From positions 384,001 through 448,000 of the forward strand of contig CAVWEH010000002.1 in the NCBI GenBank assembly GCA_963753975.1: a DNA stretch of 64,000 nucleotides, in the 5' to 3' direction. Positions 36,293 to 46,431 of this stretch are shown here, in pieces (positions within the stretch are counted from its first letter, which is position 1; each line of letters begins with the position of its first letter). The stretch comes from an uncultured delta proteobacterium (GTDB lineage Bacteria > Desulfobacterota > Syntrophia > Syntrophales > Smithellaceae). A program made the position numbers and the translations under genes. A model generated the notes under the pieces. The model saw nothing but the letters and a program-made list of their open reading frames with translations, did no database searches and was not told the origin of the DNA.

Positions 36293-38406
36293 TTATTTTT
36301 TCACCTTCAGCAGCCGGGCATTAATCGCGACGATAATCGTGCTCGCTGACATCAAGACCGCTCCCATGGCCGGACTTACGATAATCCCCGTGCTATAAAG
36401 AACCCCGGCCGCAAGCGGTATAGCCAGAGCATTGTAGCCCGTCGCCCAAGCCAGATTTTGCACTAATTTATTATAGGTGGCTTTGGACAGACCGATAATA
36501 CTGAGAATATCCTGCGGGTTGCTTTTCACCAGAATAATATCCGCCGTTTCCAGCGCCACATCCGTTCCCGCGCCGATAGCGATGCCGACATCCGCCTGAG
36601 CAAGAGCGGGAGCATCGTTAATTCCATCGCCTGTCATGGCGACAACAAATCCTTTGGATTGCACCTCTTTTACTTTTGCCGCCTTCTCACGGGGTAATAC
36701 TTCGGCAAAATATTCATCAAGACCAAGCTCGTCGGCCGACCCATCTGGCAACCAGGTGGTTGTCGCCGGTAAGCATCATACATTTTATACCTGCCGCCTG
36801 CAAACGTGCGACAGCGTTTTTCGCTTCCGGGCGGATCAAATCCGCCAGGGCAATCGCTCCGAGCAATTTGCCTTCCCTCAGAACAAAAATCACGGTTTTG
36901 CCCTGTTCATGAAAGCGGAGAATTCTGTTATCCTGAATATCCAAATTATTTTCTTTAATGTAGCGAGGGCTGACTACTTTTACGTCTTTTCCGTTCACCT
37001 TCCCTTCGGCGCCGCTGCCCGGAATGTTCTTGAAGCGCTCCGGGTGGACAATTATTTTTGCAGCCGCTACAATGCCTCTGGCAATGGGATGTTCCGAATA
37101 CGATTCGATGGACGCAGCATACATCAACAGGTCTTCCCTAGCTACTTCCCCGTCAAATATTACCACATCCGTCACACCGAACTTTCCTTCGGTCAGCGTC
37201 CCTGTTTTATCGAAAATAACCGCTTGGACGTTTCTTGCCTGTTCGAAAGCCGACTCTGTTGCGGATTAAAAGCCCGTTGACAGCCGCGATGGAAGTGGAA
37301 ACGGCAACAACCAGCGGCACCGCCAGACCCAGCGCGTGCGGACAACTGATCACCATTACCGTAACCGCCCTTTCCAGGGAAAAAGCAAAATCCTTATTCC
37401 CTATGAAAAACCAGATCAAGATTGTCAGAACGCTCACTGTTATCGCGATTACCGTAAGGAAAAACGCAAAACGGTTCGCCGTATCCTGTGTTTTCGATTT
37501 ACTTTCCTGCGCTTCTTTCACTAATCGAATAACCTGCGCTAAAAAAGAATCCTTGCCCAATTTTTTTATCAGCACAGTAAGAGAACTATCGCCGTTAACT
37601 GATCCGCCGATTACTTCCGAGCCTTTATTTTTCTTCACCGGGTTGGATTCTCCGGTCAGCATCGCTTCGTTGATATAAGTCTCGCCTTCCTCTATTTCCC
37701 CATCCGCCGGCACTTTCTCGCCCGGTTTAACAACGACTCTATCATTGAGATTCAATTCCTGCAGAGGAACATCTTTTATGCTTCCATCAGCCATTATCTT
37801 ATGGGCAGAGGCAGGCATAAGGTTTGCCAGTTTTGTGAGCGCTTTGGAGGCGCCCATTACCGAACGCATTTCTATCCAGTGCCCCAAGAGCATGATGTCA
37901 ATCAAAGTGGCGAGCTCCCAGAAAAATATCGAGCCCGGCAATCCAAAAACAACAACACTGCTGTATAAATAAGCCGTGGTGATGGCAACGGCAATAAGCG
38001 TCATCATTCCCGGCCGGGAATATTTGAATTCTTCGGCCATCCCTTTCAAGAAAGGCCAGCCGCCATAGAAGAAAATAAATGATGACAAAACAAAAAGAAT
38101 ATAAACGTCGCCCTTAAAGCGCAGAGCGTTTCCGATATCGAGCAGCATTTGAATCATGGGGGTAAGAATTAAAATGGGCCCAGTTACCGCGAGCGAAATC
38201 CAGAACCTCTTTTTAAAATCGCCGATCATATTCTCATGGCCTCCCTGATGGTCGTGATGATGATCTTGCGGAGGTTGATGGTTTGTTTGCTTATGCGGGA
38301 TTGCGGGATAAGCGCTGCCTGTATGCTGCCCGTGCATGTGCTCCTGGTGCTGGTGATTATCTTGCTTTGCTGGGAGGGGGTTTATACGTGTGATTAGATT
38401 TGTCAT
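36293..38406 (-). CDS. copB: Copper-translocating P1B-type ATPase (CopB-like, CPH), two +1 frameshifts (~37254, ~36736)
   Basis: His-rich N-terminus, [16 protein letters not shown] (in corrected frame), [10 protein letters not shown] and MSAST motifs. Confidence 0.88.
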
Positions 38407-42601: not shown

Positions 42602-42669
42602 ATGTAGTTGTCAATCAAAGTTGTGATTTCGACTTTATCTACTTCGTTTAGTTTTATTTTGTCCGGCAT
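42602..42669 (-). pseudogene. Truncated gene 5' end, copy B (MPDKIKLNEVDKVEITTLIDNYI)
   Basis: 63/68 nt identical to 43781-43848; resembles the N-terminus of an MBL-fold hydrolase. Confidence 0.6.
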
Positions 42670-43609: not shown

Positions 43610-43780
43610 GATTCTTCTCCTCATCTTGCCATTGCGAGCCCGCCGTAGGCGGATGTGGAAATCTTATTGATCTAACTGCCCCGGAATTACAAATATCTTC
43701 AAGACATTTTTTAAATACGGCTCCGATCCTACTTACCTTCGTCATTACCGTCCCGCATCTCATCAAACGCTACACCACCA

Positions 43781-43848
43781 ATGTAGTTATCAATCAACGT
43801 TGTGATTTCGACTTTATCTACTTCGTTTAGTTTTATTTTGGTAGGCAT
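43781..43848 (-). pseudogene. Truncated gene 5' end, copy A (MPTKIKLNEVDKVEITTLIDNYI)
   Basis: Direct repeat of 42602-42669. Confidence 0.6.
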
Positions 43849-44158
43849 GAGGTCCCTAATATTTCTTAAAACTAAGTATCTTTCTTTTCTTCTGATATTT
43901 CTGCCACATTGGTTTGATGAAATCAAGTTCCCACTGGCCTAAAACTCGCAGTTGATTATCGGAAGTCATGGTCAAAGGGCAGTTTTTATTTCTTCCAAAG
44001 CGCATATTAAAAAATTTGACCTAACTTCTTTAAAAGAAGCAATTTTTTGAAACAGATATTTTGTTCGATGTGAATAAATTGACATCAGTCGATATAGGGC
44101 TAAATTTATCTAATAAATACAATATATTGTGTCTGTACAACAAAATTAAAAAAATAGT

Positions 44159-44186
44159 TTGACAAATATTTAGAAATCTATATAAT
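44159..44186 (+). promoter_or_regulatory. Sigma70-type promoter of the retron-like operon
   Basis: Perfect TTGACA-N16-TATAAT. Confidence 0.8.
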
Positions 44187-44189
44187 AAA

Positions 44190-44665
44190 GTCAATCAAGC
44201 CGACGATTCGTTGGTAGCTCTTTGAAAATGAAACGGAGATATTTATGTCCGAAATTTGGCATCTCCTCGATTCCAGGTCAAGTGAGACCTTCCCTGTTTT
44301 ATAGGGGATAACAGACTGAGAAATCAGTCACCACATGAAAATGTGGTTTTTTAAAAGGCCATGGTGATGCGAGGTCCGTTGCCTATGATTCTGTATAACG
44401 CAGTCTGAACTGCGCAGAAAAGCATAGACAGCAGTCAATAAAGATTATTTTCTTGACGCCCCGTACAACCTGTCGCCACCGGTGGTTCACCCATGGATAA
44501 AATTGCGACGATTGAACAGCCGGCGGCCATAGCATGGCCGCAACCCGTGCGGGCAAAGGAATCAAAGAGCGTTCTGATTGATTTTCTTTGAAGTGAGGCG
44601 ATGCCATTTTATCAGGTGATAAGATCATTGCCTCCCTAATGCAGGGTAATCTAGAGAAAGGAGGC
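44190..44665 (+). ncRNA. Putative retron ncRNA (msr/msd-like or hybrid leader RNA), ~470 nt
   Basis: No long + strand ORF; long-range pairings 44191-44197/44575-44581 and 44217-44225/44562-44570; about ten local hairpins including two GAAA tetraloops; upstream of a retron-type RT. Confidence 0.72.
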
Positions 44666-44675
44666 CATAAACCAA

Positions 44676-44957
44676 ATGATAAAGAAGGACATAAAAACAA
44701 TTCGGGCAGATATGGAGATTGTCCGAGAGAGCCAGAATATTTTATTCCGGCTAAAATTTTCAATCGCCGTTTCTACAAGATCTAGTTTGAAAGAATATCT
44801 TCGAAAAGCTAAAAGACAGTTAGTTATTAGTTTCGTGATGTGTATTCTAAAGATGTCAGCAAATTCGATTGTAAATGCAACATCAACAGTGTTTTCCAAA
44901 GCCATTTCCGTCCTTCTAGAAATATGGCTTAGGATTAAACACGAACCGATCTTATAA
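44676..44957 (+). CDS. Small orphan protein, candidate retron effector
   Basis: 93 aa, AGGAGG RBS at 44659-44664, basic N-half and hydrophobic C-half; lies between ncRNA and HTH gene. Confidence 0.65.
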   Translation: MIKKDIKTIRADMEIVRESQNILFRLKFSIAVSTRSSLKEYLRKAKRQLVISFVMCILKMSANSIVNATSTVFSKAISVLLEIWLRIKHEPIL

Positions 44958-45002
44958 AAACCTGCACGGTTTTTTAAAACAATCCTCAATGAGGTGATAT
45001 TT

Positions 45003-45332
45003 ATGAAAGTAGGAGAGATAATTAAATTGATCAGGACCAAACGGGGGATATCCCAAAAGGAAATGGCAGACCAGTTTGGAATATCGCAAAATTACTTATC
45101 GCTTATAGAAACTCATAAAAAGAGACCAAGTATAGAAACAATCGACACTTTTGCAAAGAAATTTGGCATATCAAAAGAAGCCCTTTTGTTCGTTACGTCT
45201 GAAATACCTTCAGAGCTGGACGAAAATGCTAAACAGGATTTTAAAAAATTACAAGATAATATCCTTTATCTAATACTATTCGATGCCAACCGAGGTATTA
45301 ATTGTCTGCCGCGCGCCCAAAACGCCATCTAG
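45003..45332 (+). CDS. XRE/Cro-CI family helix-turn-helix protein
   Basis: IRTKRGISQKEMA..FGISQNYLSLIE..KKRPS; GAGGTG RBS; overlaps RT start. Confidence 0.92.
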   Translation: MKVGEIIKLIRTKRGISQKEMADQFGISQNYLSLIETHKKRPSIETIDTFAKKFGISKEALLFVTSEIPSELDENAKQDFKKLQDNILYLILFDANRGINCLPRAQNAI

Positions 45333-46180
45333 AGATTAGAAAACTCGATCATCTTTCTCTTCGTCTAGGTATTGCCCTGGACGAGCTCATCGCGGTAGCT
45401 AGTTCAATAAACCAATATTATATAGTTCGAAAGCTCCGGAAAAAAAACGGCGGCTTTAGGACAATAAGTGCGCCGCAGCCTCGTTTGAAAAGAATTCAAC
45501 TTAAAATACACAAGCTGCTAAAGGAGATTATTATAGACGATGCAGCTCACTGCGGAATTAAGGGTCGTTCAAACCTAAGTAATGCAAAGCAACACACTAA
45601 TAAACCAATGTTGCTGAACCTTGATTTAAGTAGTTTTTTCCCAAGTATTTCGCATCATCTAGTTTATAACATGTTTGTGCATTCCTTGAAATGCTCTCCA
45701 GCGGTATCTCGTATACTTACTCGTCTGTCTACTTACAATGGTGAAGTGCCTCAAGGTGGGCCAATGAGTACTGACATTGCAAATTTGATTTGCTGGAAAA
45801 TAGATAAGAGGTTATCAGGGCTGGCACGCAAGAACAATATCACATATACACGTTATTGTGACGACCTCTCTTTTTCAGGACAAACAATTTCTGAGCCATT
45901 TATTACCAAAGTGAAGGGAATAATTTCAGAAAGCGGTTTCAAATTGAACGCGGAAAAAGAATCTTTTCACAAAAGAACTAACTCCACAAGGATTGTTACG
46001 GGACTGTCTGTTAACGGCCCTCGTCCCAAAATTCCTAAATCAGCTTTAAAGAAACTACGCGCCGAAATACATATATTTGACAAATATGAATCTCATAGTT
46101 TAACAGAACAGTTATTGGAAAAAAGACAGAAGCAGATACGAGGAAAAATATCTTACAGAAATTATATAGAAAAGAATTGA
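45302..46180 (+). CDS. Retron-type RNA-directed DNA polymerase
   Basis: RKKNGGFRTISAP, NAKQH (NAxxH), DLSSFFPSI, PQGGPMS, YTRYCDDLSFS, IVTGL (VTG); TTG start with GAGG RBS. Confidence 0.93.
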   Translation: MSAARPKRHLEIRKLDHLSLRLGIALDELIAVASSINQYYIVRKLRKKNGGFRTISAPQPRLKRIQLKIHKLLKEIIIDDAAHCGIKGRSNLSNAKQHTNKPMLLNLDLSSFFPSISHHLVYNMFVHSLKCSPAVSRILTRLSTYNGEVPQGGPMSTDIANLICWKIDKRLSGLARKNNITYTRYCDDLSFSGQTISEPFITKVKGIISESGFKLNAEKESFHKRTNSTRIVTGLSVNGPRPKIPKSALKKLRAEIHIFDKYESHSLTEQLLEKRQKQIRGKISYRNYIEKN

Positions 46181-46431
46181 CGAATCTAATTCGGGGTATG
46201 CATCTATATTGCGTTTCCATCTTCATTCACTAAAAAGCGTTACAATATTAACTCAATCTTTTCATCTACTTATACTCGCAATTTTCTTTATTTCAATTCT
46301 TTTTTTGCACTAATAAATTACAAAGGTATTATCAATTCGTCCCAAATATCGCTTCTCTTTCCTTCTTGACCCTTCCAAAATCCTTTGCCAGCCTGCAAGG
46401 CAGGAACTAACAAAAAAAGGAGGAATTTTTT

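Follow-up and report, generated by a model that had tools for sequence, protein, structure and literature searches.

A Type VI retron with a predicted toxin gene inside its long structured RNA in a Smithellaceae genome

In the genome of an uncultured delta proteobacterium (Smithellaceae; GCA_963753975.1, contig CAVWEH010000002.1), a compact operon places a promoter and a long non-coding stretch ahead of three small genes, the last of which encodes a reverse transcriptase (RT). Is this an intact retron, of which type is it, and how might it restrain the toxin that it is predicted to encode? We addressed these questions in a window of 64,000 nucleotides, the whole stretch of DNA analysed here, to whose numbering coordinates refer unless another locus is named. 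We conclude that the locus is a real and intact Type VI retron, and thus of a known kind that has already been characterised experimentally in two preprints, on Vpa2 (bioRxiv 10.1101/2025.10.22.683967) and on Sen3 (bioRxiv 10.64898/2026.04.27.721009). In both, the small protein (SP) is a toxin, cells depend for their viability on the helix-turn-helix (HTH) protein, which binds the RT, defence requires RT catalysis, and the trigger comes from phage recombination functions. In Vpa2, induced msDNA releases translation of the SP; in Sen3, the SP and RT-DNA are made constantly, the SP is controlled via the HTH protein, and the trigger is inhibition of RecBCD. The enriched RNA of the Type VI retrons studied extends through the SP gene. 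Here and below, what we say of these preprints, and of the classification of Mestre et al. 2020 (PMC7736814), refers to the accessible parts of these sources.

Results

A consensus promoter, a structured RNA and three intact genes

A sigma-70-type promoter, TTGACA-N16-TATAAT, lies on the plus strand at 44159-44186 and matches the consensus at 12 of 12 positions. The 2.43-Mb genome holds 12 sites with the perfect consensus and 16-18 nt spacing, three of them with a spacer of 16, and the position of TTGAC is kept in all 13 related loci that were aligned. Transcription would start at about 44193. The non-coding stretch at 44192-44680 (489 nt) is strongly folded (z = -5.1), with none of 100 shuffles equally good, and leads into three co-oriented ORFs:

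44676-44957, plus strand: small protein (SP), 93-aa ORF with a ribosome-binding site (RBS); predicted toxin
45003-45332, plus strand: Cro/C1-type HTH protein, 109 aa, with an RBS; HTH_3 E 8e-13, PADLOC HTH_VI E 2.7e-23
45302-46180, plus strand: retron RT, 292 aa, TTG start; RVT_1 E 1e-18, PADLOC RT_VI E 2.1e-79

The RT ORF begins at a TTG inside the end of the HTH gene, the overlap being 31 nt. A first-pass annotation, made from the sequence alone, had described the perfect promoter, some 480 nt of structured non-coding sequence and the three co-oriented ORFs (93, 109 and 292 aa) with their RBSs and the RT overlapping the HTH gene, all of which are present. Its statement that everything here is AT-rich holds for the ORFs (35-39% GC, GC3 0.34-0.37, against 44% GC for the genome) but not for the RNA region, at 45.5% GC. 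A copy of 43822-46290 that is about 96-97% identical occurs on two contigs of sequencing run X1, and none of the four indels listed between this copy and the window falls within an ORF. No RNA run holding the locus was listed among the sequencing runs; runs X2-X4 cover it only as short pieces.

The RT forms a lineage of its own among retron RTs

The RT carries NAKQH (residues 94-98), YCDD (185-188) and VTG (232-234), the first and last of which bear out the retron signatures NAxxH and VTG noted at first pass. RT_VI and HTH_VI are the best PADLOC models for the RT and the HTH protein, RT_VI being ahead of RT_III-A by only 16 bits and the next model for the HTH protein standing at E 2e-9. The same two models are the top matches for L036, L044, L048 and P0031. 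This PADLOC run, which the annotation had proposed as a check, thus assigns the locus to Type VI. The 12 best solved-structure matches of the RT include the retron RTs Ec86, Ec67, Kva2, Ec83 and Ec78 (E 2e-46 to 3e-24), with group II and DRT chains at E 1e-10 or weaker. None of the NCBIfam retron models was above its cut-off for the RT (St85, 190 bits where 235 are needed).

A protein search with the RT gave 78 matches at E <= 1e-30, 28 of which are 46-72% identical across most of their length. We built a tree from 41 of 91 rows (LG+G4), preceded by a quick 91-row tree that agreed with it; the rows include neither annotated Type IV RTs nor named Vpa2 or Sen3 sequences. The 13 sampled clade members form one branch (support 98/99). 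It is nested in a larger branch of 32 rows (100/96), whose further members include Type V RTs, gammaproteobacterial SP-HTH-RT loci and one locus bearing SP_VI; Type III-A RTs fall outside these 32 rows. The phylogenetic placement suggested at first pass therefore puts the RT inside a retron branch, in the company of Type V and SP-HTH-RT RTs. Within the 32 rows the branching is poorly resolved, and the SP_VI-bearing locus (L104) groups with Type V. We rejected YCDD as an unusual site, since it is the commonest active-site motif of the clade (11 of 29 RTs; YVDD 7, FVDD 5, YIDD 3, FNDD 2, HCDD 1).

Named clade members come from Desulfobacterium, Desulfobacula, Desulfobacterales and Syntrophobacteraceae, with one Patescibacteria record; this is a lineage of sediment anaerobes, apparently without prior study. 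L081, from a genome of the same phylum as the host, has the same RT match, ORFs and RNA match as L036, a Desulfobacterium record, and by this agreement the host phylum appears to fit. P0031, inside the clade, is a 414-aa HTH-RT fusion, which may be a true fusion or a sequencing frameshift.

Gene order is conserved across the clade

Collecting homologous loci, as had also been proposed, showed a conserved gene order: SP-HTH-RT is found in 17 of the 18 distinct clade loci having at least 300 nt upstream of the RT, the exception being L040. L042 (87 nt upstream only), L055 and L056 were left out of this count for too little DNA, and L046 and L081 as duplicates. A single-protein scan of the genome contigs for similar loci gave no match, but an alignment-based search did find loci. 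The 14 loci with complete RNA represent about 8 related groups and are not independent.

Three relatives are broken (L040, L054 and L055). L054 keeps SP-HTH-RT, but other DNA replaces the 5' part of its RNA; the RT of L040 is accompanied by an HTH tail only, behind a 20-nt direct repeat. L085 (G108, minus strand, 2420-2671 and 1486-2364) has a related RT, a similar 5' hairpin and arm, and an 83-aa SP, without an HTH gene between SP and RT. Behind its SP stand a possible counterpart of the repeat termed IR2 below and a U-run, the duplex being at shuffle level; a transposase-like ORF follows. L085 is possibly an HTH-less Type VI form.

The SP belongs to a family without a PADLOC match

SP homologues of 77-96 aa lie upstream of the HTH gene in the same 17 of 18 loci, and the family profile finds 43 representatives among 1.84 billion proteins. 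The view of the SP as an orphan was rejected; it is one only to a single-sequence word search. The SP is without a Pfam, PADLOC, convincing NCBIfam or usable Atlas match. None of 16 family members matches PADLOC SP_VI at E up to 1; the SP of L104, used as a positive control, does so at E 1e-30, and two Vpa2-like SPs are likewise without a match ('Vpa2-like' is our label for L089, L099-L102 and L107, given from SP and RNA size). Comparison of the family with the SP_VI-positive L104 protein by hhalign gave 0.2%, and no profile links were found from the SP to the SPs of L104, L099 and L084. The predicted model of the SP is all-helical with two long helices (pLDDT 67.5) and found no fold match in the PDB. 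All eight family members inspected are basic and have a stretch that is both hydrophobic and amphipathic; in the window SP the C-terminal half is hydrophobic. By analogy with Vpa2 and Sen3, we predict that the SP is a toxin.

Structure prediction for the SP with an HTH dimer weakly suggests contact (0.60, against 0.00 for the best control). One of three runs gave 0.14; the contacts agreed to at least 19%, and the partner had a pLDDT of 56 or more. The mark is reached by 116 of the 157 solved pairs and by 2 of the 215 mismatched ones, and at or below 0.60 by only 18 solved pairs and both mismatches; a pass at this level is wrong more often than not, unless the pairing is likely beforehand. The window HTH protein extends a few residues beyond the usual stop.

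The predicted RNA is long and would close around the SP gene

The following RNA elements were located in the window, all on the plus strand:

44199-44215, plus strand: 5' stem-loop adjoining the 5' inverted repeat, in a Sen3-like position
44217-44225, plus strand: 5' arm of the terminal inverted repeat (a2-like); complementarity suggests pairing with 44562-44570
44235-44347, plus strand: msr-like domain with five hairpins (44235-266, 44275-290, 44291-308, 44314-329 and 44330-347)
44348-44541, plus strand: variable msd-like domain, the predicted RT template by analogy with Vpa2 and Sen3
44542-44553, plus strand: IR1, 5' arm of a long-range helix around the SP gene
44554-44590, plus strand: X:Y hairpin, formed by 44554-61 and 44583-90; it encloses the a1-like arm (44562-44570) and crosses the a2:a1 helix
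44595-44665, plus strand: riboregulator-like region; stem 44595-603 with 44626-34, whose 3' strand can alternatively pair the SP RBS at 44657-44665
44961-44977, plus strand: IR2 (44961-71), then a U-run; the hybrid RNA is predicted to end here
44984-44994, plus strand: small hairpin covering the HTH RBS

The order in the RNA is promoter, 5' hairpin, a constant 8-nt arm, five hairpins, variable domain, IR1, X, a1-like arm and Y, and then a stem before the SP RBS, the SP gene, IR2, the U-run and a small hairpin on the HTH RBS. In the 14 loci the inferred start precedes the SP gene by 388-483 nt and the HTH gene by 682-810 nt, the window being the longest; the RNAs of two Vpa2-like phage loci measure 450-474 nt. 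The 5' domain was found in 14 of the 15 relatives with sufficient DNA, with nothing better than E 0.045 outside the clade, and a search of Rfam gave no match for the RNA. Two-sided changes occur in 12 of the 18 consensus pairs of the 5' domain. Its 5' stem-loop has four consensus pairs, none of them broken in 11 sequences and two with two-sided changes, and three of the five msr-like hairpins are in the consensus structure. The msd-like domain, which ends in a hairpin at 44523-44541, is 197 nt long in the window versus 98-152 nt in 13 relatives, and the predicted template of about 190 nt folds well as DNA (z -3.6). At 44330-44355, the fifth hairpin and a T-run score as a terminator within the RNA, which may mark an RT stop or an attenuation point.

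The helix IR1:IR2 is the strongest of the RNA results. In the window it reaches -18.2 kcal/mol, equalled by none of 300 shuffles. Its letters vary between lineages, and yet the cognate pair ranks first in 9 of the 14 loci and above every out-of-lineage spacer in 12; an unanchored search reaches IR1 in 13 of 14. The X:Y hairpin, in which X is a purine and Y a pyrimidine tract, and the riboregulator stem together have two-sided changes in 10 of 16 pairs, a result found in 0 of 500 shuffles and above all slid controls. Covariation did not support the alternative pairing of the SP RBS (93 of 500 shuffles). In whole-RNA equilibrium folding of 11 of the 14 loci, IR1:IR2 was close to 0 in 10 and a2:a1 was 0 in all 11, and the SP RBS was unpaired only at 0.01-0.45. 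Local folding gave no clean on/off switch (mean RBS unpaired 0.29, 0.30, 0.25 and 0.45).

Vpa2 has a conserved 7-nt direct repeat, in its msd loop and riboregulator loop; no such repeat was found in the 14 loci, where the last 75 nt before IR1 were compared. The longest repeats there are 5-9 nt, differ per locus and are at shuffle level in 13 of 14; the 7-nt repeat that the window has at 44525-31 and 44663-69 is no better than chance (52 of 200). In several loci the eye also picks out a purine repeat between X and the SP RBS; it was dropped as well, the modelled pairing of the RBS with Y being about 0 in the whole RNA. By eye, the Vpa2-like phage loci L099-L102 show, upstream of the SP, two loops that each contain a GGCGA-type repeat; TCGCC, its complement, stands close to the RNA 5' end and could pair either loop, and these two words form the 5' hairpin in the present clade.

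Two possible priming sites

We lean slightly towards priming of reverse transcription at IR1:IR2. The 3' end of IR2 is aimed at the part of the variable domain that immediately precedes IR1, a primer-like geometry, and in 13 of 14 loci no G lies within 8 nt after IR2. At least four U follow IR2 directly in 8 of the 14 loci; in two others the computed helix takes up the run, and four have none. Intrinsic terminators consist of a GC-rich helix with a U-run behind it, which is what IR1:IR2 resembles. A terminator at IR2 would determine where the RNA ends and place a free 3'-OH on the template. More speculatively, and on balance improbably, IR1:IR2 with the U-run would be an intrinsic terminator with the whole toxin gene as its 'loop', its free 3'-OH would prime the RT just 5' of IR1, and the system would constitute a third Type VI control circuit, watching AddAB rather than RecBCD. 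If true, reverse transcription would yield a linear RNA-DNA molecule without a branch, and a transcript could be copied only if it contained a complete toxin gene. Priming from a 3'-OH would also explain the free 5' end of Sen3 DNA after RNase A/T1. The main text of the Vpa2 and Sen3 preprints names neither the priming nucleotide nor the RNA-ending signal, and 'terminat' is absent from it.

Branch-G priming, the textbook route (Mestre 2020, PMC7736814), is in our estimate a weaker candidate than IR1:IR2. Here 44217-44223 would pair with 44564-44570, the 2'-OH of G44224 would prime, and the DNA would start with the complement of X and IR1, opening IR1:IR2. The 8-nt arm is identical in all 14 loci, each with a complementary arm 254-346 nt downstream (3-14 kcal/mol); in 4 of 14, the C that faces the G is not kept. 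However, the arm served as the search anchor, so that its constancy is in part circular; the covarying X:Y hairpin is predicted to sequester a1; and in Vpa2 the 5' end of the DNA is the last msd hairpin, its authors likening the 3'-end repeat to a1/a2 (bioRxiv 10.1101/2025.10.22.683967).

The retron occupies a swappable slot

Two boundaries enclose the locus:

43761-43853, minus strand: R1, left boundary; what remains of the 5' part of a metallo-beta-lactamase-fold gene, found repeatedly in the genus
46271-46311, minus strand: R2, right boundary; recurring intergenic repeat, promoter-like on the minus strand by eye

In five relatives the R1-R2 interval holds, respectively, a Type IIG restriction enzyme, a PDC-S60-like pair, a kinase/radical-SAM/IrrE block, one unknown ORF, and nothing. 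R1-R2 is a swappable, genus-wide defence slot. L108 and L110-L113 are the same slot with other, in part defence-like, cargo; the empty slot measures 57 bp in G005, and the retron, unlike the other cargo, faces against R2. The block in L108 (4829-9932, G006) comprises a radical SAM protein (weak viperin match), a thymidylate kinase with a 5-hmdU kinase helical domain, an unknown ORF, IrrE-like and HTH proteins and a small protein, a possible defence or DNA-modification system. An integron origin of the flanking repeats was dropped, R1 being a gene remnant and R2 an intergenic repeat, with no integrase among the 40 proteins scanned (window ORFs from 19157 on).

No close RT was found in 14 same-genus genomes (58-98% complete) or in 46 other relatives searched, and one clade member was found among 400 genomes of the phylum; together with the complete ORFs, this agrees with the earlier reading of an intact, horizontally acquired system. 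A second R1 copy, 93% identical, lies one gene leftward at 42602-42669, so that an SDR gene also stands between R1 copies. L109 (4111-6094, G010), from the same genus, is a different retron, with an RT and a DUF3800 protein, Type VII-A2-like. Elsewhere in the window, at 36293-38406, a heavy-metal P-type ATPase gene is split up over three ORFs, one with the E1-E2 ATPase part and two with pieces of the hydrolase.

Discussion

The best explanation of the locus, to which we give a probability of roughly 85%, is an intact Type VI retron acting by abortive infection. The anatomy, gene order, helices and RT placement come from the loci analysed here, and for toxicity, the complex and the trigger we draw on Vpa2 and Sen3. 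One promoter would give a hybrid RNA of about 780-810 nt, comprising RT-binding hairpins, a template of about 190 nt and the SP gene, and closed by IR1:IR2; the HTH protein and the RT would be supplied by read-through. At rest, the RT, the HTH protein and the RNA would form a complex in which the SP RBS is mostly paired, and the HTH protein would also restrain any SP made. Phage recombination proteins, or a blocked host end-resection nuclease, would disturb the complex, after which RT activity would be required for release of the toxin and hence arrest of the cell. In the host genome (95% complete), RecC had no match and RecB none over the cut-off, and an adjacent gene pair is AddAB-like, AddAB being our reading. 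Given that RecC has no match, the published trigger cannot carry over literally and probably differs in detail. Within this explanation we put translational release, as in Vpa2, at even odds, since a translational layer is favoured by the stem conserved where the SP begins and by an RBS that is mostly paired in the models. Post-translational release, as in Sen3, is the less probable route, though the long SP, the 5' hairpin and the weak SP-HTH prediction lean towards it; some other route is left with a small share.

The layout that the first-pass annotation had recognised as Type VI is borne out by PADLOC, the tree branch and the SP-HTH-RT order. That annotation overlooked both the reach of the enriched RNA across the SP gene in the Type VI retrons studied and the experimental work on the type. 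The locus resembles the Type VI retrons of RT clade 3, a clade shared with Types IV and V (Mestre et al. 2020, PMC7736814), in its RT with NAxxH and VTG, a Cro/C1 HTH protein of 91-110 aa and a small helical accessory protein, which at 77-96 aa is here outside the PADLOC model. With Vpa2 and Eco12, of the Type VI 'Large' lineage, it shares the order RNA-SP-HTH-RT and an SP gene within structured RNA; as in Vpa2, the 3' end is predicted to fold back on the first arm via an inverted repeat, and the models place the SP RBS mostly in stems. It differs in predicted RNA size (682-810 nt, where the entire Vpa2 RNA has about 470 nt), in the SP (55 aa in Vpa2), which is unrelated in sequence to those of Vpa2-like loci, in the 7-nt repeat, and in RT branch from the Vpa2-like phage loci, Vpa2 itself being outside the tree. 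Sen3, of the Type VI cl2075 lineage, shares with the locus its terminal inverted repeats and the hairpin that immediately precedes the 5' one; in both, the template arm has IR1 at its 3' end and IR2 comes after the stop codon of the SP gene, the SP is long with two helices, and the C-terminal helix of the HTH protein is the likely SP contact. Unlike Sen3, where the RNA starts about 280 nt before the SP, it starts 388-483 nt before it here, the SP family is without an SP_VI match, the RT is far from that of the SP_VI-bearing L104, which groups with Type V, and the host seems to be without RecBCD.

Could the same system work by Sen3-like control only, with constant RT-DNA and SP, the HTH protein as an antitoxin that binds the SP, and the RNA as a scaffold? 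We regard this as rather unlikely, even though the SP has, like that of Sen3, an N-terminal helix and an amphipathic C-terminal half at a length far from the 55 aa of Vpa2, the hairpin ahead of the inverted repeat is as in Sen3, the Vpa2-type repeat was not found, and the SP-HTH prediction, weak as it is, stands above its control. Its sequence nonetheless does not link the SP to SP_VI, the covarying conserved stem adjoins the SP RBS, and the sister-type locus L085 has RNA, SP and RT without an HTH gene between them. A silent or decaying passenger is improbable. The broken relatives, a window RNA that is the longest of 14, an HTH protein that runs past the usual stop, and an R2 that may drive antisense transcription would suit it; against it stand the full-length ORFs, the intact catalytic residues, promoter and helices, and indels that, as listed against the X1 copy, avoid the ORFs. 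Least probable by far is a DRT, group II or other RT that merely neighbours an unrelated regulator: scores below the cut-offs of the NCBIfam retron models and the empty Rfam search leave room for it, but the solved-structure matches, with retron RTs first, and a gene order and RNA fixed across the clade have already largely refuted it.

The claim of a new subtype survives only in part. YCDD and the orphan SP fall away as grounds for it, whereas the long RNA stands and is a property of the whole clade. What is distinct here is the RT lineage, the SP family without a PADLOC match, the size of the RNA relative to that of Vpa2, and the absence of a conserved 7-nt repeat from the stretch compared. 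The lineage, the SP family and the larger RNA appear to be undescribed in the literature searched, and may sit unnamed in the heterogeneous 'Large' group or in the 292-RT tree of Type VI.

Type VI retrons that share one gene order are controlled by at least two circuits of opposite kind, as Vpa2 and Sen3 indicate. Should the system merely repeat one of these, the gain would be modest, a new SP family and an RNA model for the annotation of defence systems. The lineage offers 14 complete, divergent RNAs in which the long-range helix, the U-run and two competing helices are individually mutable, and it adds a new family of predicted small toxins in a host without a RecC match.
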